Source of the DNA: a virus
Lineage: Duplodnaviria; Caudoviricetes
IMG/VR virus record: IMGVR_UViG_3300028840_002749
Coordinates: 1 to 49,460 of that record
DNA: 49,460 bases
Strand: one strand, 5' to 3'
Shown: positions 1-49,460 of the stretch, one piece after another
How the letters are laid out: each line of letters opens with the position of its first letter
Position numbering within the stretch: position 1 is the stretch's first letter
Translations under genes and position numbers: made by a program
The notes under the pieces: generated by a model
Seen by the model: the letters and a program-made list of their open reading frames with translations, nothing else
Told to the model about the DNA's origin: nothing
Databases searched by the model: none

Positions 1-144
1 GAGACGCTAGATGATATTACGGCCTCTGGGGCCGGTAGCGTTGATCTAAGCGCAAGCCTGGCCGAAACCTTAGACGATATTACCTCTGTAGGATCTGGCA
101 GCGTAGACATAACTGGGAGCCTTGCAGAGACTTTAGGAAATGTA
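1..144. repeat. Terminal direct repeat / circular assembly overlap (identical to 49317-49460)
   Basis: GAGACGCTAGATGATATTACGGCC...TTTAGGAAATGTA occurs at both ends; the reading frame of the 47334 ORF continues across the junction. Confidence 0.95.
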
Positions 145-558
145 ACCGTAGTAGGTACTGGAGTAATAGGAGATGCGCCGATAACAGGCAGCCTATCAGA
201 GACTCTAGACGATATAACGGCTGCAGGATCTGGAGACGTTGACGTAGACGGTAGCCTATCGGCTACTTTGGATAATGTCACAGCTTTAGCTAGTGGCCAG
301 GTAGATGTAGACGGTAATCTAGCGCAGACTCTAGACGACATTACGGCTACAGGAGCTGCTAGCGTAGATCTAACCGGCAGCCTTACGGCTACCCTAGAAA
401 ACGTGACGCTTGCAGGATCTGGGGTAATAGGTGAATATTATCGCAAGGTAATTAGCCTGGAGGTTACAGCAAACCAGGTAATAGCAGAGGACGTAACTAT
501 AAACCAGGTTATTAGCGAAAACACAACCATAAACCAGGTTATTAGCGAGGATATATAG
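1..558 (+). CDS. C-terminal part of ~846-aa repeat-containing virion fibre/adhesin-like protein (starts at 47334, wraps the junction)
   Basis: Frame 1 is open from base 1 (ETLDDITASGAGSVDL...) to the stop at 558. Contains 21-aa repeats, then three ~10-aa NQVI(A/S)E repeats. The track ORF 268..558 is only its tail. Confidence 0.85.
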   Translation, partial: ETLDDITASGAGSVDLSASLAETLDDITSVGSGSVDITGSLAETLGNVTVVGTGVIGDAPITGSLSETLDDITAAGSGDVDVDGSLSATLDNVTALASGQVDVDGNLAQTLDDITATGAASVDLTGSLTATLENVTLAGSGVIGEYYRKVISLEVTANQVIAEDVTINQVISENTTINQVISEDI

Positions 559-560
559 AT

Positions 561-890
561 ATGACTGACACAGCGCAAGTAGCGTATTTAAACGACATAG
601 GCACAGCTATTAGGCTTACTATCAAGGATCAGGACGGCAATATTATAGATGTGTCAGGATCTACCGTTAGAACGTTGAAATGTGACAAACCAGGCACAGC
701 TACTAACATCTCAAGAAATATGGTATTTTTTACGGATGGGTCAGACGGGATAGTAGAGTATATAACTATAGACGGCGACTTAGATACTATAGGCCTTTGG
801 GAGCTGCAGGCTTACGTAGAGATGCCCGGCGGTAAGTGGCATACAGCAGAAACAACTATGAGAGTTAAGCCGGTTTTGGAGGTAGCGTAA
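561..890 (+). CDS. Small virion structural protein, BppU-N-like Ig fold
   Basis: DIGTAIRLTIKDQDG...DGSDGIVEY...DLDTIGLWELQAYV pattern typical of BppU-N-like phage proteins; RBS GAGGA. Confidence 0.55.
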   Translation: MTDTAQVAYLNDIGTAIRLTIKDQDGNIIDVSGSTVRTLKCDKPGTATNISRNMVFFTDGSDGIVEYITIDGDLDTIGLWELQAYVEMPGGKWHTAETTMRVKPVLEVA

Positions 891-2146
891 TGGGTATGCT
901 AGAGCCTTACTGGGGAGAGTTTTTAATATCCCCGATACCACTAGAGCTGAGTCTAAATTACTGTAGTCATAAATGTGCTTACTGTTTTGCTAATCTAAAC
1001 AGCCCTAAACGGCGTGGCGATATAAAAAAGATTATGAGCTTTTTAGCTGACTTTCATAATAGAGAGACGCTAAGCGCTAGACTTATGCAGGACAGGTACC
1101 CCGTTTGTATTTCTAATAGATCGGATCCTTTTGCCAGATCTAACGATAGTCAGATAACGCCAATACTAGAAACCCTGGCAGCCATTGACTACCCGGTGAC
1201 ATTCCAAACCAAGGGCGGGGCGGGGGTTGAGGCCGGCTTGAGTTTATTTCCTACCGCCGTTTGGTATATTTCGGTATCCTTTGCTGATGACGATTTACGG
1301 CGCAAGATAGAGCCTGGCGCTCCGAGTATCGCTAGCCGTTTTGAGCTTATGGAGAAGGTTACCAGGGGCGGGGGCCGGGTAATTTTGGGCTTAAACCCAG
1401 TAGTACCAGAGTGGATTAGTGAGGAGGAGACAGAAACCGTATTGAAGGTAGCCCAGAGCATAGGCGTAGAAGGAGTCTGGATAGAGGAGCTGCATTTAAA
1501 CGCCAGGCAAATACAGGCCATGAGTAAGGCTGAGGTAAAGGCAATAGGTAAAGACGTTTTAGAGAGAGCTAAAAAGCGCCGTAAAGAAGATAAAGACGCT
1601 AACGCCTTTTTTTACGCAAGGGAAGTAGCGCAGGCTATGGGTTTTGAGATCTTTAGTAACGGGCAGCCAAACAGATCTAATATATGGCAGATCTACAGAG
1701 ACGTATACGCTAATACCTTCCCTACTAACCAGGATTTTGTAAACGACTGTATAGAGAAGGGCTGGCATAGCTCATTATTGACATTTCCACACTGGTACGA
1801 ATCTGTAAAAGATCTACCAGCCGGCAAGTATCGCATGAATAAGTACATTGGCGCTAGTGCTAGATCTATTTTTGATGAGTACCAGATTCCAAGCAAGCTA
1901 ACTTTTACGGAGCTGCTAGGTGTTATCTGGAGTACAAAGAGAGCAAAACAAAGCCCGGTACGTATGCCTAACTTTAGCTATGCTAGCGTATGGGCCGAAA
2001 ACGGCTATTTACAGCTTGTAGACGAGTCAGACATGCCCTACCTCGTATTTGACGAGACAGGCTCTTTAGATAGCTACTATACGCCCGTAGCGCCTATCTG
2101 GAGTAAAGAGGTAGCAGCGTCTGGAGAGGTTATCAGTTATGGCTAG
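890..2146 (+). CDS. Radical SAM enzyme, spore-photoproduct-lyase (SPL)-like family
   Basis: CSHKCAYCFA (CxxxCxxC), SDPF, FQTKG and RKIEPGAPSIASRF motifs typical of SPL-like radical SAM proteins; TAATG coupling to the upstream gene. Confidence 0.85.
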   Translation: MGMLEPYWGEFLISPIPLELSLNYCSHKCAYCFANLNSPKRRGDIKKIMSFLADFHNRETLSARLMQDRYPVCISNRSDPFARSNDSQITPILETLAAIDYPVTFQTKGGAGVEAGLSLFPTAVWYISVSFADDDLRRKIEPGAPSIASRFELMEKVTRGGGRVILGLNPVVPEWISEEETETVLKVAQSIGVEGVWIEELHLNARQIQAMSKAEVKAIGKDVLERAKKRRKEDKDANAFFYAREVAQAMGFEIFSNGQPNRSNIWQIYRDVYANTFPTNQDFVNDCIEKGWHSSLLTFPHWYESVKDLPAGKYRMNKYIGASARSIFDEYQIPSKLTFTELLGVIWSTKRAKQSPVRMPNFSYASVWAENGYLQLVDESDMPYLVFDETGSLDSYYTPVAPIWSKEVAASGEVISYG

Positions 2147-2960
2147 TAGTGGCGGTCACTGGGTAAAGATAGCGCAGGGAGATATAGGCGCTATGGTGTT
2201 TGTACCAAAAGGCAAAACTGTAGAGCAGGTTACTATAGGCCGTAAGCCGGCGGGGGGAGGATGGCCTCCAAGCCTAAACGCTGTACAAGAGGTAAAGGGC
2301 TTAGGCGGTTCTACGGGTGCTAAGTTAGTACAAGACGAAAACGGTAATTTGTACGTTATGAAAAAGGGCGCAAGCCAGGCTCATATACAAAGCGAATCGT
2401 CTGCAGACAAATTATATAAAGAGATGGGCGTAGACGTACCAGATCATAGAATGTACGGCAATACAAAGTTAGCCAGGTACGTAGAGGGCCAGACGCTGCA
2501 GCAAGCCCAGACAAACGACCCGGCAGCCTACAATAGCGCTATCAAGAGGCTGCAGGATAACTTTGCTGCAGATGCTTTACTAGCTAACTGGGATGTTATA
2601 GGCCTGAATAAAGATAACATCCTGATAGACAAAAAGGGTAAAGTCTGGAGAATAGACAACGGCGGGGCGCTGGCTTACAGAGCGCAGGGCGCAAAAAAGA
2701 GCGCTGCAGGCTGGAATAATAACCCTACTGCTATCTTTTCTATGAGAAAACAAGGCGTAGCCGGCTCTGTATTCGGTAAAATGAGCTGGAATCAGGTAGC
2801 AGCCAGTATAGATAAACTACCTTCAAAGATTGGAATCTCAAACAGTAGCAAGATAGGAGCCAGGCTAGCAAAACTAAAAGATCTGTCATCTCTTATCAAG
2901 TCTGGAATGCCAGAGGCAGATATAGAAAACTATATGACCGCTTTGTGGTCAGGAGGCTAA
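2139..2960 (+). CDS. Leader-tagged HipA/PI3K-like (CtkA-like) protein kinase effector
   Basis: GGSTGAKLV (P-loop), YVMKK, ESSADKLY, DALLANWDVIG, DNILID and RIDNGGAL motifs; N-terminal MASSGGHWVK leader. Confidence 0.75.
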   Translation: MASSGGHWVKIAQGDIGAMVFVPKGKTVEQVTIGRKPAGGGWPPSLNAVQEVKGLGGSTGAKLVQDENGNLYVMKKGASQAHIQSESSADKLYKEMGVDVPDHRMYGNTKLARYVEGQTLQQAQTNDPAAYNSAIKRLQDNFAADALLANWDVIGLNKDNILIDKKGKVWRIDNGGALAYRAQGAKKSAAGWNNNPTAIFSMRKQGVAGSVFGKMSWNQVAASIDKLPSKIGISNSSKIGARLAKLKDLSSLIKSGMPEADIENYMTALWSGG

Positions 2961-2963
2961 TTT

Positions 2964-3263
2964 ATGGCTAGTAGTGGCGGTCACTGGGTAAAGGCGCCGG
3001 CAGGGCGCTTAGCAGGTACAGCTATTTTTGTACCGGATCCGGGGGATTCTAGTTATGGCTCTATTTATGAGGAGGCAGCTAACGCCTATGTAGCTAAGGC
3101 GCAAGCTGAGGGCGTAAGTACCGATACTCTTTATACAGACGGTAGTAAGTTTATGGATTTTGCGGTACTAGCATATAAGAATCCAGACGCTTACAGAAAA
3201 AAGATAGACGAGACGCTAAAGGTAATAATTAATCCGGTGCAAGCGGATTTATTCGGAGGCTAA
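2964..3263 (+). CDS. Leader-tagged hypothetical protein (99 aa)
   Basis: AGGAGG RBS; begins MASSGGHWVKAPAGRLAGTAIFVP. Confidence 0.8.
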   Translation: MASSGGHWVKAPAGRLAGTAIFVPDPGDSSYGSIYEEAANAYVAKAQAEGVSTDTLYTDGSKFMDFAVLAYKNPDAYRKKIDETLKVIINPVQADLFGG

Positions 3264-3266
3264 TTT

Positions 3267-5090
3267 ATGGCTAGTGCAGGTGGACACTGGATGAAAGCAA
3301 AGGTAGGGCCGTATGCTGGCTCTATGGTTTTTGTACCTGGAGTAAAGAGCGGTACGGCCAAAGAGCATTACTACCCGGCAGGATACGGAAACAAAGGTAA
3401 AACTATAGAGAAAAACGCCAGCGTACAAGGCGGTCTATCTGTGTACCAGAATGAGGCCGGGGAGTGGGTAGTAGCCCACACCGACTCAGGTATGTCATTA
3501 GGGCCAAAGTTTGATAACAAGGCTGGGGCTATGTTGGCAATGGAGGAGCTAAACCAGGCCGGCGGTAAGATCTGGACACAAAACGCGAACGAGATACAAG
3601 GTAGCGCCAAGGATCTAAAGCCATTAGCTGACAATCTGAATAAGTATAAAAATATAACTGAGGGTAGCGCCGAGATTGGTATGGACTTATTGAAAGAAAA
3701 CTACAGCATAAACCAAAAAGCGCTACAGCAAAAGGCAGCTAAGTTAACCCAGACGTCTACACAGGCTAACCAGGCTGCAGCTGCAGCTAAGGCGCCTCTT
3801 ACAAAAGCTAACCCGGAGAATTACGGACTAGGTAGCCCGACAATAAAAGGTATAAAGGTAGAAGGCGGGCAAGTAGTCTACAACAAAAAGACGGGTAAGT
3901 ACGATGTACTTGACGATGATAATAACGTTGTAAAATCGTATATATCGCTTGGTAACGCCCAAACTGCAGCGCCTGGAGCGATTGCAGCCAGCAAGGCGGG
4001 CCAGGCCAGCCAGACCGGGGCGCAAGTATCGCCGGTAAAACAAGGCAAACTAACAGCCACAGTACCGGAGGGAGCTAGCCAGACTTTCAAGGATAACGCC
4101 CAAGACGTACAAATAACTACCATAATGGGCAAGAAACAGACAGTAGCCGGTATACCTGTAGAAATATCTGGAGTAGAAGGGCAGCCCAGCATTACCTACA
4201 ACAAGCAGACCGGCAAATATCATGTAAACGATCCTAACGGCAAGACGATCAGTAAAGGGCATGATACCTTTACCCAGGCCGGCAACTCTCTAGCCAAGCA
4301 TTACGCACCAAAGGAGCCTAGCGGTACATACGCCAAGGCAGAAAAGGCCTCACTGAGTACGCCCACAGGTAAGAAGCTAGAAGGCGTAGCCGTAGACGGC
4401 GGTCTAGTATCCTTTAATACCCAAAGCGGTAAGTATGAATTGCACAACTTTGACGGTAATAAAATATCTGAGCATAGTAGCCTTGGGTCAGCACAAACCA
4501 AGGCCGGCCAGATCAAAGAATACTCTAACCCTAATGTATCTCACTGGGTAAGCGACAAATACGGCAGCGTAAGCGCTGGGGAGAGCGCTTTAGCTAGCCA
4601 TTTCGAGAAACACGCAGCTAGCCTAACATCTGGGGAAAATTCCGCTATGAATAGTTACCAGGATAGCGGTTATACCGATTTAAACGGCTCTATGTGGTCA
4701 GGTAACACAGCTTGGCAGGCAACTAAGATAGCCAACCTAAATAGCGCTATAAAGAAATCGCCAGGCTTACCACAGGCCGTAAAACTGAGCTACAAAACCA
4801 GTAACAGCAATACGGTAGCATGGGCCAAAAATGCCAAAGTAGGCGATATATGGAAAAGCAAGGCATTTACAAGCACGTCTATAGATAAAAACGTGTGGTC
4901 AGGAGAAATCAAGTTTAGATTTAATGCGCCAAAGGGCCTAAAGGGCTTTTTCATGAATGCAAAAGGGCGCTACAGCTCACACCCTGGAGAAAAAGAGTAC
5001 CTGATAGGGCCTAGTAACAAATGGAAGCTGGTAAATAAGACTCAGTCTGGCAGCTCTATTTACTTAGATATGGAATGGATAGGAGACTAA
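3267..5090 (+). CDS. Leader-tagged multidomain protein with C-terminal VIP2/Alt-like ADP-ribosyltransferase domain
   Basis: C-terminal YQDSGYTDLNG...LNSAIKKS...LSYKT...FTSTS...GEKEYL (R-S-E clan pattern); internal ~40-aa repeats; MASAGGHWMK leader. Confidence 0.75.
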   Translation: MASAGGHWMKAKVGPYAGSMVFVPGVKSGTAKEHYYPAGYGNKGKTIEKNASVQGGLSVYQNEAGEWVVAHTDSGMSLGPKFDNKAGAMLAMEELNQAGGKIWTQNANEIQGSAKDLKPLADNLNKYKNITEGSAEIGMDLLKENYSINQKALQQKAAKLTQTSTQANQAAAAAKAPLTKANPENYGLGSPTIKGIKVEGGQVVYNKKTGKYDVLDDDNNVVKSYISLGNAQTAAPGAIAASKAGQASQTGAQVSPVKQGKLTATVPEGASQTFKDNAQDVQITTIMGKKQTVAGIPVEISGVEGQPSITYNKQTGKYHVNDPNGKTISKGHDTFTQAGNSLAKHYAPKEPSGTYAKAEKASLSTPTGKKLEGVAVDGGLVSFNTQSGKYELHNFDGNKISEHSSLGSAQTKAGQIKEYSNPNVSHWVSDKYGSVSAGESALASHFEKHAASLTSGENSAMNSYQDSGYTDLNGSMWSGNTAWQATKIANLNSAIKKSPGLPQAVKLSYKTSNSNTVAWAKNAKVGDIWKSKAFTSTSIDKNVWSGEIKFRFNAPKGLKGFFMNAKGRYSSHPGEKEYLIGPSNKWKLVNKTQSGSSIYLDMEWIGD

Positions 5091-5094
5091 AAAA

Positions 5095-5313
5095 ATGGCT
5101 AAATATAAAACGATAAACGGCGTCAAGTATAGATTTTTGAGCCATGCGGAAAAAGAGGCCAAGGATCAGGAGCTTACAGATCAGGGCCTATCTGGGTTTA
5201 TCATCGAGAGGGACGGTAAAAAGTACGAGTTTATAAACGGTAAAATGGTGCCATTGTCAGCAAAGAAGGCTAGAAAAGCTATCGGACGTGGTAAAAAAGC
5301 CAAAAAGGCTTAG
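5095..5313 (+). CDS. Small basic protein, paralogue of 42683..42880 (possible immunity/regulatory partner)
   Basis: Shares DQELTDQGLSGFxIxRDGxxYEF with ORF 42683..42880; Lys-rich tail. Confidence 0.65.
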   Translation: MAKYKTINGVKYRFLSHAEKEAKDQELTDQGLSGFIIERDGKKYEFINGKMVPLSAKKARKAIGRGKKAKKA

Positions 5314-5329
5314 TTAGGTAAAGGTAAAG

Positions 5330-6034
5330 ATGACAGAGAATCGACCTCTATATGAGCGCCAGGACTGGGATACCCCCGCCGGCTGGGCGTTCTTTAAGTG
5401 TTATCTAGCCCAGGATCCCCCAAGATCATTAGTAAAAGCGTACAATACGTACAGGGAGGAGAAAAAAGGGGCTAAAGAGGGGCTGAAAAAAGCAAAGAGG
5501 GTGCCTGGCTCATTTCGTAACATGGCAGCTGGAAAAAATCGTGATGGTACGCCTAGACCGTTTGCGGTTCCATTTACAAAACGAGTTAGAGCGTATGAGG
5601 ACTACTTAGACGAGTTAGAGCGTAAGAAGTGGACAGAGCGCCGGCTTAAATTGCGTGAAATGGAGTGGAATATAGGCGAGAAGATCCTAGAAAAAGCGCA
5701 AAATATGTTACTTTTCCCGGTGATGGTAAACGATACAGAGAAAACAGAGGACGGGACAATAATACACCGTATTATGCCCGCTGGTTGGTCTTTCAAAGAT
5801 ATACCAGGTATGCTTAGTACGGCAAGTAAGATAGCTAGGCTGGCTGCAGATATGCCAACAAAGCAAGTTAAATTAGATTGGAGATCAGAGGCAGAGAAGG
5901 ACGGTATAGATCCTGATGAGTTTTACAGAAACGCCCTTAAAAACATCCAAAAAGAGTTGGATGGAGGAAGCGCTAGCGGAGGCGTACCAGGAAGCCAAGA
6001 GATTAGCCAGGGAGAAGAAGAACAGGGAGGCTAA
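5330..6034 (+). CDS. terS: Terminase small subunit (putative)
   Basis: Position directly before terL; YERQDWDTPAGWAFFKCYL...RSLVKAY...RVRAYED pattern typical of phage small terminases. Confidence 0.65.
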   Translation: MTENRPLYERQDWDTPAGWAFFKCYLAQDPPRSLVKAYNTYREEKKGAKEGLKKAKRVPGSFRNMAAGKNRDGTPRPFAVPFTKRVRAYEDYLDELERKKWTERRLKLREMEWNIGEKILEKAQNMLLFPVMVNDTEKTEDGTIIHRIMPAGWSFKDIPGMLSTASKIARLAADMPTKQVKLDWRSEAEKDGIDPDEFYRNALKNIQKELDGGSASGGVPGSQEISQGEEEQGG

Positions 6035-7457
6035 CAGGGCTAAGTACGCTGATTTTCAGGCAAAGTATAGGGATGACTTTGCCGGTTTTGTGCGTGAGTG
6101 TATAAGCTGGGGCAAAGATGAGGGGCCTAGCGACTATCAGGAGGAAATAGCAGAGAAAATATCAGAGGTAGATAGAGTATCTGCAAGGGGGCCTCATGGG
6201 CTGGGCAAAACCGCCCTAATGGCTATGGCCGTTTTGTGGTTTGCGCTAACCAGAGACGGTACAAAAGATAAAGACTGGAAGGTAGTAACAACGGCTAGCG
6301 CCTGGAGGCAGCTAGAGAAGTACCTATGGCCTGAGATCCACAAATGGGCCAGGCGTCTAAACTGGGAAAAAATAGGCCGGCCTCCGTTTCATAGAGACGA
6401 GCTGCTAACCCAAAAGCTAAAACTAAAAACAGGGGAGGCTTTTGCCGTAGCCAGTGATGACCCAGGCCTTATAGAGGGCGCCCACGCAGACGAGATTTTA
6501 TATATCTTTGATGAGTCTAAGAGTGTTTTACCGGCAACTTTTGACGCTGCAGAGGGAGCGCTAGGTACGGAGGGTGCTAAGGCGATTGCTTTTAGTACGC
6601 CTGGAGAGCCAAGCGGTAGATTTTATGAAATACAAAGCCGTAAGGCAGGTTATGAGGATTGGTGGGTAAGGCATGTAAAAAAGGACGAGGTAATAGCAGC
6701 GGGGCGCATGACGGAAAAATGGGCAGAGGCCAGGCGCCGGCAATGGGGGGAGAAAAGCAGCGTATACCTAAACCGTGTAGAAGGTAAGTTTGCCTCTGCA
6801 GACGAGGAATCGGTAATCTCTCTGGCCTTAGTTGAAAAGGCTATAGAGCGCTGGTACGAAAAACAGGATCAGGAATACTGGGGAGATTTTGTAACGGTTG
6901 GCGTAGACGTGGCTAGAACGGGCCAGGATCAAACGGCATACGCGCTTAGGTTTGGTAACTCTATCAAGGAAATTAGAGTAACGAATCAAGAGGATACTAT
7001 GCAGACCTCTGGTAAGACAAAAGGTATAATGAGCAGATATGACGGCGAGGCCATTGTAGACACAATAGGAATCGGCGCCGGCGTATTTGATCGACTGAGG
7101 GAGCAAGGGTTACCAGTAGTAGCTTTTACGGCCAGTGCTAAAACCAGGTTTACGGATATGTCAGGCGAGTATGGTTTTGCAAATGTGCGTAGCGCTGCTT
7201 GGTGGAATCTTAGAGAGATGCTAGATGATGACGACCTAGGTATAGCTTTACCTGATATTGACGAGCTTATAGGGGATCTAACTACCCCTAAGTGGAGAGT
7301 TAATAGCGGTGCTAGAATATCAGTTGAAAGCAAAGACGACATTAAGAAAAGAATCGGCAGATCTACTAACCTTGGAGACTCAGTAATTCAGGCCTTTTGG
7401 GACGGTATGCAAGCTACAGAGTATGGAGAAAACCCGTTAGAGGGCTACAGAGGCTAA
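5916..7457 (+). CDS. terL: Terminase large subunit (true start may be 5961)
   Basis: Walker A GPHGLGKT, Walker B YIFDE, coupling motif STP, nuclease VGVDVARTGQDQT and RSTNLGDS. Confidence 0.95.
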   Translation: MSFTETPLKTSKKSWMEEALAEAYQEAKRLAREKKNREANRAKYADFQAKYRDDFAGFVRECISWGKDEGPSDYQEEIAEKISEVDRVSARGPHGLGKTALMAMAVLWFALTRDGTKDKDWKVVTTASAWRQLEKYLWPEIHKWARRLNWEKIGRPPFHRDELLTQKLKLKTGEAFAVASDDPGLIEGAHADEILYIFDESKSVLPATFDAAEGALGTEGAKAIAFSTPGEPSGRFYEIQSRKAGYEDWWVRHVKKDEVIAAGRMTEKWAEARRRQWGEKSSVYLNRVEGKFASADEESVISLALVEKAIERWYEKQDQEYWGDFVTVGVDVARTGQDQTAYALRFGNSIKEIRVTNQEDTMQTSGKTKGIMSRYDGEAIVDTIGIGAGVFDRLREQGLPVVAFTASAKTRFTDMSGEYGFANVRSAAWWNLREMLDDDDLGIALPDIDELIGDLTTPKWRVNSGARISVESKDDIKKRIGRSTNLGDSVIQAFWDGMQATEYGENPLEGYRG

Positions 7458-7460
7458 AAA

Positions 7461-9056
7461 ATGGCTACATTTTGGAGTAAACTTATGGAAGGTATCAGAG
7501 CTTTTAGACAGGCATACGTTAGCGCAGGATCGTTAGACTCAGCTGATTATGGAGACATAGAGGCCAGGCAGTTTAGGTATATGCTTTACTGGGCATTTTA
7601 TGAAAATACGATCTACAGCAATGTACACAAGTGGAGCGTAAACTACCGGCAGCTAGAAGGGCTTTACAGGTATATTAGAGGAATCTATAACCCTAGCTAT
7701 AGAATCGGTGAGTTTTGGCGCTCTCATATCTGGGGAGGCACCCTAGACAGTGAGGCCGGTACCGGTGAGTCTGGTAATGATACTGCTATACCTATCATTA
7801 CAGATAATGACTCAATCAGGCCGGCTATAAGTAATCTCTGGAGTTGGTCAAATTGGCAGACGACTAAAGGAGTCTGTAGCTTACATGGGGCCGTAATGGG
7901 TGACGTGGGCATACAAGTAGTAGACGATGTAGACCGGGGCAAAGTATATCTGCAGCTGGTACACCCAGCTACCCTAACGGATGTACAGCTAGATAACTTT
8001 GGCAACGTCAAGGGCTACACAATTGAGGAAAAAAGAGTACACCCAGATTACCCAGACAGAGAGGTAGACTACAAAGAAATAGCCAGCAGAGACGGTATAA
8101 ACGTAGTCTACAAGACTTTTCTTAATAACTCCCCTTACCCCTGGAATGGTCAACAAAGCGAATGGTCAGAGCCTTATGGTTTTGTACCTATGGTCATGAT
8201 ACAACATAACAACGTAGGTATTAGCTGGGGATGGTCAGAGCTACACGCAGGCCGGGTAAAATTCCAAGAGGTAGACGACCTGGCAAGCAAGCTAGGGGAT
8301 CAGATCAGGAAAATGGTAGATGCGCCCTGGCTACTTTCAGGCGTAAAAAAGCCAAGATCAAGAATCAGAGCAACCGGCGAGGATCCCACAGTAAGTATGA
8401 CTAAGCCAAGCCGTGAGGAGACGCCCATACTTTATGCTGAGGCCGGGGCGAAGGCTCAAAGCCTGGTAGCCTCGTTAGATCTTGGAGCAACCAGCGGGCA
8501 TATCGGTACCGTGTTGTCTGAACTTGAGAGGGATTACCCAGAGCTACAAATGGATATATGGAATGCTAGCGGGAATCAGTCTGGCCGGGCATTACGGACA
8601 GCCAGACAGCGGGTATCTGAGAAGGTTTACGAGCGCCGGGCAATTTATGACGATGCCTTAGTAAGAGTACAGCAAATGGCTTTAGCTATTGGCGGGCATA
8701 GAAATTATGATAACTTTGCCGGCCTAAACTTGCAGAGCTACGACTCAGGCGCCCTAGATCATCAGATAGGAGATAGGCCGGTTTTTACGGAGGATCCATT
8801 AGACGACATAGAAGTAGAAGGCGCATTTTGGAAGGCTGCAAACGAGGCTATACAGGCCGGCATACCCCTTATGGTCTACCTGCAGCGCCAGGGCTGGAGT
8901 GATGACGACATAAAGCAAATAGAGGAATCGGAGGAGTACCAGCTAAAGCTAAAGGCCATGCGAGCAGCCGGCATGATGCAAGATGCAATGAGCGAGGGGG
9001 AGGGCGGGGAGGCGCCCTCAGACCAATTGGACGAGGTAAGCCCTGATAATGCCTAA
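7461..9056 (+). CDS. Portal protein
   Basis: 531 aa directly after terL; VPMVMIQHN...GWSEL and SGRALR motifs resembling SPP1-type portals. Confidence 0.85.
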   Translation: MATFWSKLMEGIRAFRQAYVSAGSLDSADYGDIEARQFRYMLYWAFYENTIYSNVHKWSVNYRQLEGLYRYIRGIYNPSYRIGEFWRSHIWGGTLDSEAGTGESGNDTAIPIITDNDSIRPAISNLWSWSNWQTTKGVCSLHGAVMGDVGIQVVDDVDRGKVYLQLVHPATLTDVQLDNFGNVKGYTIEEKRVHPDYPDREVDYKEIASRDGINVVYKTFLNNSPYPWNGQQSEWSEPYGFVPMVMIQHNNVGISWGWSELHAGRVKFQEVDDLASKLGDQIRKMVDAPWLLSGVKKPRSRIRATGEDPTVSMTKPSREETPILYAEAGAKAQSLVASLDLGATSGHIGTVLSELERDYPELQMDIWNASGNQSGRALRTARQRVSEKVYERRAIYDDALVRVQQMALAIGGHRNYDNFAGLNLQSYDSGALDHQIGDRPVFTEDPLDDIEVEGAFWKAANEAIQAGIPLMVYLQRQGWSDDDIKQIEESEEYQLKLKAMRAAGMMQDAMSEGEGGEAPSDQLDEVSPDNA

Positions 9057-9921
9057 AAACCCTTTAGAGACTAACCTAAAACATGCTCTAATTGACGCCC
9101 AGAAGCTCTCTAAGCTATTTAGGGCCTTTGGTAGGACAGATTATGTAGGTACTCCAATTTTGAAGGCCTACAGGGCCACTTACAGATCTTTAGACCAGGC
9201 GCTACAAGCCGGCGCCGGGCATGAGGCCGTACTAGATTCCTTTGAATCTCTTAGGGCCAGCGTACAGGCTAGCTCTGCAGAGATCCTAATGAGAGCTGCA
9301 AGACAAGGGGTTGAGTCAGCTAGCGTACAGCTGCGTAATTATGGGGATCAGGTAAACCTAACGCCAGACGAGATAATTAAGCTAAGAGCTAACGCAGCCG
9401 TAGGGCCAATACTGGCAAAGGTAGATCAACAAGAATCAGCGATAATGGCAAGCTGGCTAACCGGGCCAGACAGATCTATGATACTTGGAGACAAGAGCAG
9501 ATCAGGCCAGCTCAGGCCTGCAGATGTTTTAGTTACCGGGGCGGTATGGGCAGCAGCTCTTTTTTGGTCTTTGTTTGGTTACATGGTGAATGATACGGTA
9601 GGGCCTGGAAAATATGAAAAAATGGCAGTAGCCGGCCTAGACGAGCGTACTACTGATTGCTGCCTACGTGTTCATGGTCAAGTACAGCCCTTATCTGGCA
9701 AATTTAGGCTCAAAGGTACACCCAGGTTTGCGGATCGTATTAGCTGGCCTCCGTTTCATTGGTATTGTAGGACGTCTGGAGTCTTGTACCAGGCCGGCTA
9801 TGACGAAAACCTATCTAGCCTTATGCAAACAAGCGCTAAGAAGATTCTAGACCGTAGAGCAGCTGGCTTACCGATACCAGAGATACACCCGGCCAGCGCT
9901 TACCTTGTAGCTGGTTTGTGA
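9049..9921 (+). CDS. MuF / SPP1 gp7-like minor head protein (short, no toxin extension)
   Basis: DERTTDCCLRVHGQ...PPFHWYCRT signature; follows portal. Confidence 0.85.
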   Translation: MPKNPLETNLKHALIDAQKLSKLFRAFGRTDYVGTPILKAYRATYRSLDQALQAGAGHEAVLDSFESLRASVQASSAEILMRAARQGVESASVQLRNYGDQVNLTPDEIIKLRANAAVGPILAKVDQQESAIMASWLTGPDRSMILGDKSRSGQLRPADVLVTGAVWAAALFWSLFGYMVNDTVGPGKYEKMAVAGLDERTTDCCLRVHGQVQPLSGKFRLKGTPRFADRISWPPFHWYCRTSGVLYQAGYDENLSSLMQTSAKKILDRRAAGLPIPEIHPASAYLVAGL

Positions 9922-35867: not shown

Positions 35868-36062
35868 ATGTATATTATCGTAACGCCAGAGGACGGCAGG
35901 CGGGTAGAAAATACCCGTTTTAGTAGCGTAGCTGCAGCCGTAAAACGGATCAAGCACCAAGCGGGCAAATGGTCAGACCTGCAGCCACAAAACGAGCTAG
36001 ATCTAGCTGCAGTAATCAATCAGAAAACCGGCGTAATTATGACGGTACGCCGGGAGACCTAA
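35868..36062 (+). CDS. Hypothetical protein
   Basis: GGAGG RBS; followed by a terminator. Confidence 0.65.
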   Translation: MYIIVTPEDGRRVENTRFSSVAAAVKRIKHQAGKWSDLQPQNELDLAAVINQKTGVIMTVRRET

Positions 36063-36069
36063 CCAGGGC

Positions 36070-36105
36070 AAGAGCCAGGGCTAATAGCTCTGGCTCTTTG
36101 CTTTT
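36070..36105 (+). terminator. Intrinsic terminator
   Basis: AAGAGCCAGGGCT-AAT-AGCTCTGGCTCTTTGCTTTT. Confidence 0.75.
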
Positions 36106-36111
36106 AATCAG

Positions 36112-36145
36112 TTTGCTTAATAGCCTGGCTGTAATGTATTGTCTA
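36112..36145 (+). promoter_or_regulatory. Phage promoter motif copy 5
   Basis: TTTGCTTAAtagcctggctgtaatGTATTGTCTA. Confidence 0.8.
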
Positions 36146-36166
36146 TATAAAAATGGAGGTAGCGTA

Positions 36167-36772
36167 ATGAAAATCAGGATCAATAAGATCGTTAGAAACA
36201 GTTTGGTAGATGGGCCTGGAGAGCGATTAGCTATCTTTTTACAGGGCTGCGCTCTGGCCTGTAAGGGTTGCCAGAATCGGGCGCTTTGGGATTCCAAAGG
36301 CGGTTACGAGACTACGGTAGAGGATCTTGTACAAGTGGTAGAGAATCTGGGGTCAGATCAAGTAACGATAACCGGCGGGGAGCCTCTACTACAGGCTGAG
36401 GCTGCTATAACTTTGGGCCTGCAGCTGAAAAACGCCGGCAAGCATGTTATCTTATACACTGGCTACGAGATAGAGAGTCTGCCAGTATTCGGCTATCATT
36501 GGATCTTACCAAGGGCCTTTGATGTTATCGTAGATGGGCCATTTATAAAAGAGCTAGATCATGACAAGCTAACCTATAGGGGATCTGCTAACCAAAGGCC
36601 TGTAGATGTAAAGGCTACTTGGGAGACCGGCCATGTAGTAACCCTAGAATGGGATAATGAGCTAGTTATAGCGCCTAATGGAGATCTGGTAATGCCTTTG
36701 GGCTTTGCAGACGAGCTGGATTTAGGGCAGGCTGAAAATTCCCGTATGTGCGGGCAAACCAGGGGGTACTAA
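36167..36772 (+). CDS. NrdG-like radical SAM activase (no NrdD partner recognised)
   Basis: SLVDGPGERLAIFLQGCALACKGCQN, TITGGEP, YTGY, DVIVDGPF and RGSANQR; start reassigned to the ATG after GGAGG. Confidence 0.85.
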   Translation: MKIRINKIVRNSLVDGPGERLAIFLQGCALACKGCQNRALWDSKGGYETTVEDLVQVVENLGSDQVTITGGEPLLQAEAAITLGLQLKNAGKHVILYTGYEIESLPVFGYHWILPRAFDVIVDGPFIKELDHDKLTYRGSANQRPVDVKATWETGHVVTLEWDNELVIAPNGDLVMPLGFADELDLGQAENSRMCGQTRGY

Positions 36773-42693: not shown

Positions 42694-42880
42694 TTTAAAT
42701 AAAAGGCACCAAGAGAGAGAAAAGGCAGATCAAGAGCTTACAGATCAGGGCTTATCTGGGTTTACGATTACTAGAGACGGTATTGAGTACGAGTTTGTTA
42801 GATCTATAATGATACCTATTATCCCTTGGTTGGGATCTGGTAGGGCTGAGTTTATAGAGGTCGAAAAAGACGAGTCGTAG
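42683..42880 (+). CDS. Small protein, paralogue of 5095..5313
   Basis: DQELTDQGLSGFTITRDGIEYEF; GGAGG RBS. Confidence 0.65.
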   Translation: MTTDLNKRHQEREKADQELTDQGLSGFTITRDGIEYEFVRSIMIPIIPWLGSGRAEFIEVEKDES

Positions 42881-42924: not shown

Positions 42925-42958
42925 TTTGCTTAATGGGCGTGGTCTATTGTATTGTCTA
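42925..42958 (+). promoter_or_regulatory. Phage promoter motif copy 8 (within an 80-bp promoter+RBS block repeated at 44668-44747)
   Basis: TTTGCTTAAtgggcgtggtctattGTATTGTCTA. Confidence 0.8.
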
Positions 42959-45886: not shown

Positions 45887-46594
45887 TTGAGCGAATCTAG
45901 GTTAAAAAACCGCATTTTAGAAAGCAAAGAAGTACCGGTAAAAGAGCTGGTAGCTAATAGCTCTAACTGGAGGTTACACCCAGTAAGGCAAAAGGCAGCC
46001 ACAAAAGAGGCTATAGGCTACGTTGGCTGGGTTGAGCGGGTGTTAGTAAACATGCGTACAGGTGACGAGTGGCCGGATGACGAGCGGGGCGTAAGTACCC
46101 TGGTAGATGGTCACATGAGACTCGAAATAGCAATAGAGGCCGGTGATGAAACGGTACCGGTAGACTTTGTAGATCTTACGCCGGCTGAGGAGAGCTACGT
46201 ACTTGCTACCCTAGATCCTTTAGGCGCTTTAGCACGTACCGATAATGAGCAACTTTTAGAGCTTACTAGCCGAATAGACCAAAACAGCAAAAGCGTAAGA
46301 GCAGCCCTGAGAGCTGCAGGTATAGAGAGCCGTGATACGTTGCCTATTTTAGAAGGTAACGGCCTGGAGAATGCCACTGGAAGCCGTAGGGATACGGAAT
46401 CGGACAACGGCCAGGGCCAAAAGCCACAGGTACCCAGCCAAAACCCACAAAAGCCATTACAAAAGTATCCCCTGGCTATCGTATTATCTAAGAAAGATCT
46501 TACACTATGGAGAGAGTATAAAGAGCGGGTAGGGATCCAAACGGATACTAACGCTTTTATAGATCTGTTACGAGCTGTGACAGATGACAAATAA
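45887..46594 (+). CDS. ParB/Srx N-terminal-domain protein (phage type)
   Basis: NWRLHP...Q...IGYVGW...LVDGHMRL...VPVDFVDLTPAEE...LATLDPL; TTG start. Confidence 0.8.
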   Translation: MSESRLKNRILESKEVPVKELVANSSNWRLHPVRQKAATKEAIGYVGWVERVLVNMRTGDEWPDDERGVSTLVDGHMRLEIAIEAGDETVPVDFVDLTPAEESYVLATLDPLGALARTDNEQLLELTSRIDQNSKSVRAALRAAGIESRDTLPILEGNGLENATGSRRDTESDNGQGQKPQVPSQNPQKPLQKYPLAIVLSKKDLTLWREYKERVGIQTDTNAFIDLLRAVTDDK

Positions 46595-47025: not shown

Positions 47026-47334
47026 ATGGGAGTCGTGGTATTTGATTACCCGGCTATACAGGCGCATGTAGAAATAGACTGGAACGATGTAAACCTACGC
47101 CTAGCAGATGTAACCTGGACTATAGGCGCCGTTTGTACGGTTCAGATAGATATTTACCGCCTGAATATTAGCCCAGATCCTGTTACCACTAGGATAATTA
47201 CCGGGCCGGACTCGGATAGCGAGCCGGTTCCCGGTAATCTTAGAATGGAGGAGTACGAGGATCCAGAGTACCCAGAGGAGGGGGTAAGGATTCTCTGGCC
47301 TGATGGGTTGGTATTTAATGTGGCGGTGCTGTAA
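47026..47334 (+). CDS. Hypothetical protein
   Basis: TAATG coupling to the fibre gene. Confidence 0.6.
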   Translation: MGVVVFDYPAIQAHVEIDWNDVNLRLADVTWTIGAVCTVQIDIYRLNISPDPVTTRIITGPDSDSEPVPGNLRMEEYEDPEYPEEGVRILWPDGLVFNVAVL

Positions 47335-49460
47335 TGGCTATCGAGAATAGTTATTTTACTTATCAGTCTGCAACGGATCCAGTTGATCTAACAGTATCTA
47401 TCAGCTCTAACAGTGATAGGATACTTGGTATTAATATTGTGGTACGTGGGGGCGAAACGGTATCATCTGTCACATTAGACCCAAGCGGAAATAACGAATC
47501 CGCTACTCAGCTACAATCATCCTCAGCGAATAATACAAACATATACACCTATTACATAATCAATCCAAGCTCAGGTGCAAGCCAAACGCTAAGAGTTGAT
47601 CTGTCAGGCACGAACGGGCAATGTAGTGTACATGCGCTTGATATGTCAGGCATGGATACTACGAGCATTGACGATGGTTACACGATAGCAACGGCGAGGA
47701 CGAGCAGCCCACAAGCCACATTTACAACCGGTGCAAACGGTTCTCATATTATGGGGCAATTCTTGAGCGAGGCAAACTCAGGAGTTGGCGTTGATACCTG
47801 GACAGGAGTCACAGGTCAGACCACAGCAGACGCTACAGATCGGGGATCTTGGCAATCTGCGAGCGCGTACGCAACTCAGACCAGCTCAGGCTCTATGACG
47901 GTTGATTTTAGGACAACTCAGAGTGATAACTGGATATGTTCGGGCGTTGCGTGGCCTGTTTCTGCTCTGGCAGCCATAGAAGGTACGCTATCTGAGACTT
48001 TAGACGATATTACAGCTGCAGGATCTGGAGACGTAGACGTAGATGGTACCTTATCTGAGACGCTAGATGACGTTACCGGGGCGGGTACCGGGGAAGTAGA
48101 CATAGCCGGCAGCCTGGCTGAGACCCTGGCCGATATAACCGTAGACGGTACCGGTACTGCAAACGTAGTACCCATTTTGGCTAAAACGCTTGCTCATACC
48201 ACTTCTTATACGACATCTGTAACAACGTCATCAATAGATACAACTGGTGCAGACTTTTTATTGATGGCGATTTCAACTTATAATGCCAATCGCACTTTTA
48301 CGCCAAGTGATAGCAAATCGAACACTTGGCAAAGTCTCACGCAATATAGCACAAGCGACAATAACACAGTACAGATTTTTTACTGCTATAACCCAACCGT
48401 AGGTACTGGACATACATTTACTGTTACCGCTGATGATAATACCTATATAACCCTTTTTGCTTATGCTCTAAGCGGAATGGATACTACATCAGGGGTATAT
48501 GATACGGAAAATGGGGCTAGCGATTACGCCACAGGTAATATTACGCCAAGCGAATCCGGCGAGTTAATATTTTCGATCTACAATCAGTATTCAAGTTCTG
48601 GTACACCCAACGTATCATCCCCGTTTATAAGAGAGGACACAGATCCGTTTAGCTCAGGAGAGACTCCGGGCGGTTCTACGGCTTTTGTAAATACATACGA
48701 TAGCACAAATCAAATACAAGCTACATGGAGTAATGTTGGCGATGGCGAGGCCTCATCAATTGCAGCGTTTAAGTTAGCGTCAGATAGTGTTTCTGGCAGC
48801 CTGGCTGAGACGCTAGATGACATTACGGCTGCAGGATCTGGAGACGTTGACGTAGACGGGAGTCTAGCGGAGACGCTAGATGACATTACGGCTGCAGGAT
48901 CTGGAGACGTTGACGTAGACGGGAGTCTAGCGGAGACGCTAGATGACGTTACCGGGGCGGGTACCGGGGAAGTAGACATAGCCGGCAGCCTGGCTGAGAC
49001 GCTAGATGACATTACGGCTACGGGATCTGGAGACGTTGAAGTAGCCGGCAGCCTGGCTGAGACGCTAGATGACATTACGGCTACGGGATCTGGAGACGTT
49101 GAAGTAGCCGGCAGCCTGGCTGAGACGCTAGATGATATAACCGTAGCAGGTACGGGTACTGTAGTCAGTGGTAATACTGGCAGCCTGGCTGAGACCTTAG
49201 ATGATATTACGGCTGCAGGTACCGGGGAAGTAGACATAGCCGGCAGCCTGGCTGAGACGCTAGACGATATTACAGCTGCAGGTACTGGGGAAGTAGACAT
49301 AGCCGGCAGCCTGGCTGAGACGCTAGATGATATTACGGCCTCTGGGGCCGGTAGCGTTGATCTAAGCGCAAGCCTGGCCGAAACCTTAGACGATATTACC
49401 TCTGTAGGATCTGGCAGCGTAGACATAACTGGGAGCCTTGCAGAGACTTTAGGAAATGTA
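47334..49460 (+). CDS. Repeat-containing fibre/adhesin-like protein, N-terminal part (continues at 145..558 on the circle; ~846 aa)
   Basis: Read manually as open from ATG 47334 (MAIENSYFTYQS...) to the window end, in frame with base 1; missed by the ORF track because it runs off the end. Confidence 0.85.
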   Translation, partial: MAIENSYFTYQSATDPVDLTVSISSNSDRILGINIVVRGGETVSSVTLDPSGNNESATQLQSSSANNTNIYTYYIINPSSGASQTLRVDLSGTNGQCSVHALDMSGMDTTSIDDGYTIATARTSSPQATFTTGANGSHIMGQFLSEANSGVGVDTWTGVTGQTTADATDRGSWQSASAYATQTSSGSMTVDFRTTQSDNWICSGVAWPVSALAAIEGTLSETLDDITAAGSGDVDVDGTLSETLDDVTGAGTGEVDIAGSLAETLADITVDGTGTANVVPILAKTLAHTTSYTTSVTTSSIDTTGADFLLMAISTYNANRTFTPSDSKSNTWQSLTQYSTSDNNTVQIFYCYNPTVGTGHTFTVTADDNTYITLFAYALSGMDTTSGVYDTENGASDYATGNITPSESGELIFSIYNQYSSSGTPNVSSPFIREDTDPFSSGETPGGSTAFVNTYDSTNQIQATWSNVGDGEASSIAAFKLASDSVSGSLAETLDDITAAGSGDVDVDGSLAETLDDITAAGSGDVDVDGSLAETLDDVTGAGTGEVDIAGSLAETLDDITATGSGDVEVAGSLAETLDDITATGSGDVEVAGSLAETLDDITVAGTGTVVSGNTGSLAETLDDITAAGTGEVDIAGSLAETLDDITAAGTGEVDIAGSLAETLDDITASGAGSVDLSASLAETLDDITSVGSGSVDITGSLAETLGNV
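48795..49460 (+). repeat. Coding tandem repeat, 63-bp / 21-aa unit (GSLAETLDDITAAGSGDVDVD)
   Basis: ETL motif at 48807, 48870, 48933, 48996, 49059, 49122, 49191, 49254, 49317..., continuing to ~420; three more units at 47994-48160. Confidence 0.9.

Follow-up and report, generated by a model that had tools for sequence, protein, structure and literature searches.

For most phages, how proteins are selected for packing and injection is not known, T4, P1 and the MuF fusions being the exceptions. We describe here a locus of a 49,460-nucleotide phage genome (IMG/VR record IMGVR_UViG_3300028840_002749; the whole of this stretch is called the window) in which the gene for a radical S-adenosylmethionine (SAM) enzyme is followed by three tandem open reading frames (ORFs) that share their first 23-24 residues and are otherwise unrelated. 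The shared N-terminal segment is referred to as the tag and what follows it as the cargo. Together with its relatives, in which a gene for a protein with a ParB-like N-terminal domain (ParB-N) and a terminase gene accompany the enzyme, the locus defines a module that is real, widespread and, as far as searched, undescribed; a 10-residue tag that has its own enzyme makes the question of protein choice testable with three genes.

The closest described systems resemble the module in part. The T4 internal proteins (IPII, IPIII) and Alt also carry a short N-terminal signal on unrelated proteins encoded near head genes, with an ADP-ribosyltransferase (ART) among the cargo (available parts of PMC9958956 and PMC5512222); however, the T4 signal needs no dedicated enzyme, whereas the window-type tag is genetically linked to ParB-N and a radical SAM enzyme, and more than one head type is found beside it. 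The MuF effectors and polyvalent proteins (SPP1 gp7, P1 DdrB/DarA) draw on the same repertoire of ART, NUDIX, GNAT, DdrB-ParB, JAB-like and kinase domains (available parts of PMC5512222 and PMC9503650), but the tagged cargo has no MuF, portal or protease domain, bears a 10-25-residue tag instead, and is encoded with each cargo as its own gene. In the available text of these two papers the word 'radical' has 0 occurrences and no radical SAM enzyme is named. In pairs of a T-dioxygenase and ParB, too, the ParB-N gene adjoins that of a modifying enzyme, frequently close to the terminase, and ParB activates the enzyme on double-stranded DNA (available part of PMC13229309); the window-type enzyme belongs instead to the radical SAM proteins, and the module has a peptide gene as its third conserved member. 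The spore photoproduct lyase (SPL) and Rv2578c/PA0069 families share with the window enzyme a weak sequence match and the same partial barrel, but the scores are a tenth of the family cut-offs, and the window enzyme has an extra C-terminal domain and a phage late-gene context. Loci that combine DUF4417 with proteins starting MGGRG occupy the same pre-terminase slot, often with ParB-N present or fused, and set unrelated cargos behind a Gly-rich start; they differ in having a barrel like that of tRNA-guanine transglycosylase (TGT) and DpdA rather than a radical SAM enzyme, and a different tag. A non-covalent contact with both capsid and DNA, as described for P1 DarA/Hdf in the available part of PMC12810830, is a known alternative. 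No description of a radical SAM/tag module was found in the literature searched, a scope that leaves most subscription papers and all supplements outside.

Linkage of tag, enzyme and packaging genes

Three scans for the enzyme yielded 186 loci in 104 clusters at 80% identity, one of which (L080) is the window's own sequence; the loci lie in prophages of Cyanobacteriota, Bacteroidota, Pseudomonadota, Chloroflexota, Acidobacteriota and others. They include prophages of Oculatella sp. LEGE 06141 (L181 and L198, with four tags and one ART) and of Chitinophaga skermanii DSM 23857 (L165). ParB-N and terminase were called with hidden Markov models (HMMs) built from these loci and checked against PHROG and Pfam. 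The general gene order is ParB-N, radical SAM enzyme, tag gene(s), terminase: ParB-N ends no more than 1.5 kb upstream of the enzyme gene in 62 of the 73 clusters with enough DNA, and the large terminase lies downstream in 51/62 clusters. When the tag was defined strictly, as M-A-[AGS]-x-G-G-x-[WF] at an ATG or GTG, it was present in 27 of the 104 clusters, with 57 matches on the strand of the enzyme gene and 0 on the opposite strand (998 kb). The strict tag began within -40 to +25 nt of the enzyme stop codon in 23 of these 27 clusters, and 13 of them carried two or more tags; tagged arrays reach ten genes (L109 cluster). A looser test, MA[AGS] plus Gly at a start after the enzyme stop, was positive in 43 of 95 clusters, compared with 14 of 623 control long genes.

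Where a terminase was in view beside tags (16 clusters), it was lambda-gpA-like in 5 and of other kinds in 11; the presence of tags beside both types suggests that it is the enzyme, and not the type of head, with which tags go. Tag sub-types also cluster on a quick tree of the enzyme (100 of 104 rows, 4 short ones left out), requiring 15 changes versus 22.4 in shuffled data (0/500), a result that kinship alone can produce. On the same tree the Trp-type label must change at least 10 times, which leaves a single origin of the Trp sub-type unsupported. Comparative genomics thus bore out the expectation of the first-pass annotation that the tag travels with the radical SAM clade and ParB-N beside the terminase, in front of varied cargo of the head-packaged effector type, and these sequence comparisons make a functional coupling of tag and enzyme very probable. 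In L006/L207 and L017/L198, tagged genes are also found in the interval from terminase to portal, and at a distance of 12-15 kb from the enzyme gene. Eight copies of the enzyme locus (L169-L175, L185) lie on separate contigs of one cyanobacterial metagenome-assembled genome.

The locus in the window is made up as follows.

45887..46594, + strand: ParB-N protein, with a short C-terminal domain after the ParB-like N-terminal one; the radical SAM enzyme is its likely partner (phrog_620/498)
890..2146, + strand: radical SAM enzyme, Rv2578c/PA0069/SPL-like, 418 aa, single CxxxCxxC, extra C-terminal domain
2139..2207, + strand: tag 1 (core MASSGGHW, then a hairpin-like W...F)
2139..2960, + strand: cargo 1, 273 aa, HipA/PI3K-like kinase domain at about residues 40-250
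2952..2966, + strand: Shine-Dalgarno/stop/start cassette, with an identical copy at 3255-3269
2964..3035, + strand: tag 2
2964..3263, + strand: cargo 2, 99-aa acidic orphan, C-terminal QADLF
3267..3338, + strand: tag 3 (MASAGGHW), synonymous sites diverged
3267..5090, + strand: cargo 3, 607 aa, four repeats of about 40 aa and a C-terminal Alt/VIP2-type ART domain (residues 446-587)
5095..5313, + strand: 72-aa basic ORF without a tag
5330..6034, + strand: probable small terminase, by position only (no family match)
5916..7457, + strand: large terminase (phrog_2)
7461..9921, + strand: portal and short MuF, no effector fused

A 144-nt terminal repeat indicates a circular assembly, and the terminase, portal, MuF, scaffold, capsid and tape measure genes are those of a tailed phage. 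The ORFs are as first described, with an SPL-like radical SAM gene whose stop overlaps the start of the cargo 1 gene by 8 nt. The locus does precede the terminase; it is not immediately upstream, as had been stated, since the untagged 72-aa ORF and the small-terminase-like ORF lie between. Likewise, the claim that ParB-N belongs to the same unit on the circle held as to its upstream position, but the gene is 3.6 kb from the enzyme gene, behind four probable structural genes. Against an HMM built on the ParB proteins that immediately precede the enzyme in other loci, the window ParB-N scored 145 bits. A promoter and terminator scan of window positions 1-6200 gave signals at or below chance.

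The tag, its enzyme and its cargo

In its general form the tag has the core M-A-[AS]-x-G-G-x-W, with an F further on. Across 46 aligned tags, M1, A2, G5 and G6 are invariant and W8 and the later F nearly so, while the loop varies in length. In a six-frame search of the window, G[HRK]W[VMIL][KRT] occurred in frame only at the three gene starts, with one out-of-frame match. Leaders 1 and 2 are identical in DNA over their first 10 codons, and leader 3 differs from them by 3 synonymous and 2 non-synonymous codons, as expected from the earlier remark that it had diverged in DNA and stayed conserved in protein; Ser codons alternate between AGT and TCN within one tag array. Synonymous divergence with a kept protein sequence shows, as far as codons can tell, that selection acts on the tag at the protein level. 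Of the 'FVP' and His that the first-pass annotation had included in the leader, 'FVP' turned out to be local and His to be replaceable (30 of 71 tags), and both were dropped as tag-defining features. The minimal forms of the tag (for instance in L070, L131 and L442) are basic peptides of 32-45 aa with a net charge of +4 to +13, and many enzyme loci have Trp-less Gly/Lys/Arg peptides. In L123, L140, L052, L122, L178, L169-L175, L022 and L158, the gene after the enzyme carries a Gly-rich motif behind a short extension, which often ends in Gln or Glu, so that proteolytic exposure is possible; in L022 and L158 the motif is borne by acidic 24-mers.

The cluster cysteines of the enzyme (C25, C29 and C32 of CxxxCxxC) are invariant across 52 aligned sequences, in which SPASM/auxiliary-cluster cysteines are absent. 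The only other conserved cysteine is C287 (83%); in SPL the hydrogen donor is a cysteine at C140/141. The window enzyme scored 45.7 bits against the Rv2578c equivalog (cut-off 430) and 37.4 bits against PA0069 (cut-off 360) in NCBIfam, and 18.7 against Pfam radical SAM, under the cut-off of 29.5; it gave no match to PF20903 (SPL), against which its relative in L457 reached 14 bits (cut-off 27). Its predicted structure (predicted local distance difference test, pLDDT, 93.9) is a partial TIM barrel like that of solved radical SAM members. The nearest fold is pyruvate formate-lyase activating enzyme (PFL-AE; Z 18.3, root-mean-square deviation 3.2, 223 residues aligned), and the comparison with SPL gave Z 16.2, deviation 3.5 and 241 aligned residues at 14% identity. 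Foldseek ranked SkfB best, then SPL and PFL-AE (E 4e-6 to 3e-5), with SuiB also among the matches. The cluster motif begins at residue 25, leaving no N-terminal room for a recognition element (RRE) of the kind used for ribosomally synthesized and post-translationally modified peptides (RiPPs), and the extra C-terminal domain spans residues 262-405 or so (about 140 residues). Among candidates of similar length, 472 relatives were found, the nearest at 74-80%. The enzyme was present in 0 of 50,697 GenBank phage records; a BFVD search returned distant unnamed models only, a single-sequence search of viral contigs no match, and searches of PDB sequences nothing significant, whether the query was the kinase or a profile of the tag or of the enzyme. 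The tag would give a substrate to an SPL-like radical SAM family without an assigned one. The window encodes a second radical SAM protein, NrdG-like, at 35969-36772.

The 71 non-redundant tagged ORFs range from 27 to 751 aa; cargo is present in 62 of them and was sorted by BLAST into 49 families. Pfam named 8 of the 68 scanned (ART 4, NUDIX 2, GNAT 1, DdrB-like ParB 1); JAB-like domains scored below cut-off, and a few ORFs have two domains (NUDIX plus kinase). A MuF domain was found in none of these 68 or the window's three. As originally described, the three window cargos are unrelated to one another. Cargo 1 has no Pfam match and is assigned as a kinase from its HipA/PI3K-like motifs (Gly loop, Lys, Glu, catalytic Asp and Mg-binding Asp, conserved in 3/3 aligned) and from Atlas features HipA_2/PI3_PI4 at 0.92. 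Cargo 3 matches ART family PF03496 at 45 bits (cut-off 23.4), with STS and ExE present and Lys at the usual Arg. No relative of the 99-aa cargo 2 was found. Its QADLF is one case of Q-x-x-[LM]-F, a possible sliding-clamp-binding motif; this pattern occurs in 5 of the 71 tagged proteins (window 3240-3254, L110, L111, L136, L198), against a shuffle mean of 1.3 (p 0.008). L002/L059 and L082 repeat the kinase-then-ART order of the window, with NUDIX inserted.

The kinase has 625 longer relatives, and the best 120 of these include 66 with Pfam MuF, 2 with minor capsid and 3 with portal domains; our own MuF HMM was positive in 79 of the same 120, none of which was tagged. Since most of these best 120 relatives are MuF-fused, the tag likely replaces a head-packaging domain, that is, it likely occupies, on this sequence comparison, the place usual for a head-loading domain. 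Effector domains of these kinds (ART, NUDIX, GNAT, DdrB-ParB) are packaged in phage heads and injected, according to the available parts of PMC5512222 and PMC9503650, and the domain assignments show that the tagged cargo draws on this MuF-type repertoire. It is likely, judging by the genes, that the tagged proteins are packaged in virions, and the module leads one to expect that dozens of orphan proteins act early in infection, against host defence or in takeover.

Tag-like starts without the enzyme and a second enzyme in the same slot

Four DNA-pattern scans of viral contigs for the tag gave at least 296 loci, and flanks were examined for 80 loci in two scans. Matches were kept if they had a Shine-Dalgarno-like site, were no shorter than 30 aa and followed an in-frame stop no more than 30 codons away, a filter that drops some true tags too. 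Among the matches listed, 69 with 39 distinct N-termini remained. Of these N-termini, 14 had the radical SAM gene in the locus, 2 more lay on contigs bearing it, and 1 was on a fragment starting 102 bp upstream; the rest were major capsid proteins from a single clade (10), a tail sheath (1) and N-termini of other kinds (11). L431, from the last group, was judged unrelated, and neither it nor short out-of-frame matches were accepted as tags. Three new enzyme loci (L442, L457, L514) were recovered through the tag, two of which (L442, L457) have the order ParB-N, radical SAM enzyme, peptide, small terminase, large terminase. The co-occurrence of leader and enzyme was thus upheld for most clear tag-first genes, which lie on enzyme-bearing contigs, but not for the capsid clade and the tail sheath.

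These exceptions, and the enzyme clusters that failed the loose tag test, weigh against the reading preferred below. The capsid clade (phrog_212; L215, L217, L225, L227, L234, L239 and L274, genomes G004, G008, G009, G013-15 and G021, among others) starts MA[AS][SA]GGHW, in members 36-81% identical from phages of about 42 kb, and the tag-like start is a five-residue insertion relative to the L037 capsid protein. The enzyme was present in 0 of 7 complete genomes of the clade and any Pfam radical SAM in 0 of 5; in one complete genome (G004), PHROG named no other modifying enzyme, with 18 larger proteins of the family scanned. The tail sheath, starting MASAGGSW (L438:8001-9392, L453), has no radical SAM gene within 8 kb. 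Such starts argue that the motif also works without the enzyme, as an arm of a virion protein. The capsid clade, a single lineage, is the main evidence against an exclusive link, and its motif may have arisen by convergence as an N-terminal arm, may be a tag that was captured, or may be what the tag imitates. In addition, 52 of the 95 enzyme clusters failed the loose tag test; many of these have Gly/Lys/Arg-rich peptides of another form (judged by eye), and some have no visible peptide.

The sister layout comprises at least 124 loci with MGGRG starts (estimated 490), of which 80 (L279-L358) were analysed. MGGRG-start genes stand in arrays with unrelated cargos, beside DUF4417 and terminase: DUF4417 lay within 3 kb in 71 of the 80 loci, terminase was found in 66 and ParB in 29. 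The two layouts did not co-occur, the radical SAM enzyme being present in 0 of the 80 MGGRG loci and DUF4417 in 0 of the 186 radical SAM loci. The DUF4417 model (pLDDT 91.9) is closest, as a predicted structure, to archaeosine TGT, QTRT2 and DpdA (Z 9.9, 9.2 and 9.0; next barrels 8.4 and 8.0). TGT-like enzymes and DpdA exchange bases in tRNA or DNA. The Atlas gave no lead for DUF4417, and ParB-DUF4417 fusions in phages have been reported, with no function given in the available part of the preprint (bioRxiv 10.1101/2025.10.10.680097). To judge from the sequences, two unrelated enzymes, both of putatively nucleic-acid-acting families, fill one ParB-N/terminase slot, each with its own tag of small residues and Gly in front of cargo that is freely exchanged.

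What the enzyme may do with the tag

The reading that most simply finds a use for all three genes, and for the basic peptides that lack cargo, is covalent attachment of the tag to phage DNA by the radical SAM enzyme; packaging and injection of the genome would then take the tagged proteins along. We prefer it for that reason, on sequence, models and analogy, and put it forward tentatively, as plausible but short of probable. The Rv2578c/PA0069/SPL-like sequence family, the fold matches, the ParB-N precedent and the positive charge of the minimal tags are taken to favour DNA as the substrate. The locus would then be a ParB-N/radical SAM/tag-gene module before the terminase, whose enzyme likely recognizes the Gly-rich N-terminal tag. 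Its ancestral form may have been a basic peptide of 30-60 aa that bound DNA by charge. The 5'-deoxyadenosyl radical would take a hydrogen either from a glycine of the tag or from the DNA itself; the radical so formed would couple peptide to DNA, with ParB-N perhaps activating the enzyme on double-stranded DNA, as a phage ParB-N activates thymine dioxygenase (available part of PMC13229309). A peptide coat on the DNA would hinder nucleases, and enzymes fused behind the tag would turn it into a delivery route for the kinase, the ART and other effectors. If true, the covalent link would add an unprecedented reaction to the chemistry of DNA and be of use as a tool for conjugating proteins to it. 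The idea may be extended, more doubtfully, to a class of 'peptide-DNA ligases' widespread in phages, in which at least two unrelated enzymes, the radical SAM family and the TGT-like DUF4417, each activated by ParB-N, would covalently staple any tagged protein onto the genome. Such a class, an equally speculative prospect, would provide peptide-type DNA hypermodification with plug-in effector injection, and a genetically encoded protein-to-DNA ligation tag.

Several observations count against attachment to DNA. PFL-AE, the top fold match, performs glycyl-radical chemistry and acts on a peptide glycine, not on DNA, and the best Foldseek match, SkfB, is a RiPP enzyme. For DUF4417, the TGT match is only 0.6-1.5 Z above generic barrels, and Foldseek gave no significant match (E 0.06). 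Bulky DNA adducts must pass the portal, and cargo of 600-750 aa would need either to pass in an unfolded state or to be joined to the DNA once in the head. Finally, the extension-borne motifs and acidic 24-mers (L123, L140, L022, L158) are at odds both with the use of a free amine at the N-terminus and with DNA binding driven by charge.

The alternative that survives best, although we consider it unlikely, is that the tag is a non-covalent head-loading signal, a T4-like beta-hairpin arm on capsid or scaffold, and that ParB-N and the enzyme modify DNA separately and only share the late operon. T4 provides a precedent with a signal of about 10 aa (available part of PMC9958956), the same start is found on the capsid clade and the tail sheath without the enzyme, and the tag replaces MuF on the same kinase. 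A head-loading signal does not readily explain why the tag abuts the enzyme stop in most tagged clusters across unrelated terminase types, why tag sub-types cluster on the enzyme tree (with the reservation about kinship made above), why an unrelated enzyme in the same slot has its own tag, or what purpose the cargo-less peptides serve.

It is more improbable still that the enzyme and ParB-N together introduce a novel modified base or lesion into phage DNA, of which the tag is the non-covalent reader, the tagged proteins coating the marked DNA and travelling with it. This would account for the linkage and for enzyme-specific tags; the SPL-like family and the ParB partner point to DNA, and stacking against a base would be within the reach of the invariant Trp and the Phe that comes later. 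However, many tags consist only of Gly/Ser/Ala and Lys/Arg and are too plain for a specific reader, and two unrelated enzymes would need two unrelated readers, both starting with small residues and Gly-Gly.

About as improbable is a RiPP-like maturation in which the enzyme alters the tag by glycyl-radical chemistry, epimerization or a Trp cross-link and makes it protease-resistant or competent for head loading. The invariant Gly-Gly, a glycyl-radical activase as nearest fold, the matches to SkfB and SuiB, the short precursor-type gene adjoining the enzyme gene, and the resemblance of the acidic 24-mers to precursors all favour it, and protein effectors matured by radical SAM enzymes exist (available part of PMC13128918). 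Against this stand the missing room for an N-terminal RRE, the missing SPASM cysteines, a ParB-N left without a role, and the dispensability of His and Trp across the family. All of these except the point on ParB-N also weakened the Trp/His cross-link, one of two options offered by the first-pass annotation, and covalent tethering to DNA, the other, appears the better of the two on sequence grounds. Even under the non-covalent explanations, a cassette of tag plus enzyme is undescribed in the literature searched.

That the shared start is a duplicated translation-initiation cassette with no peptide function, as the identical codons of leaders 1 and 2 and the Shine-Dalgarno/stop/start sequence shared by two genes might suggest, is very improbable and was largely refuted by the codon pattern, together with the lack of opposite-strand matches and the recurrence across phyla.

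Some further features of the window were recorded. A single repeat-rich structural ORF crosses its ends (47334-49460 and 1-558). A 69-nt segment of the 72-aa ORF before the terminase (5164-5232) is 83% identical to positions 42728-42796, in a 65-aa ORF. Two frames at 42926 and 44673 have nearly identical first codons (about 25), suggesting a repeated upstream element, and an AAA ATPase gene and a DUF1257 gene lie between and after them.

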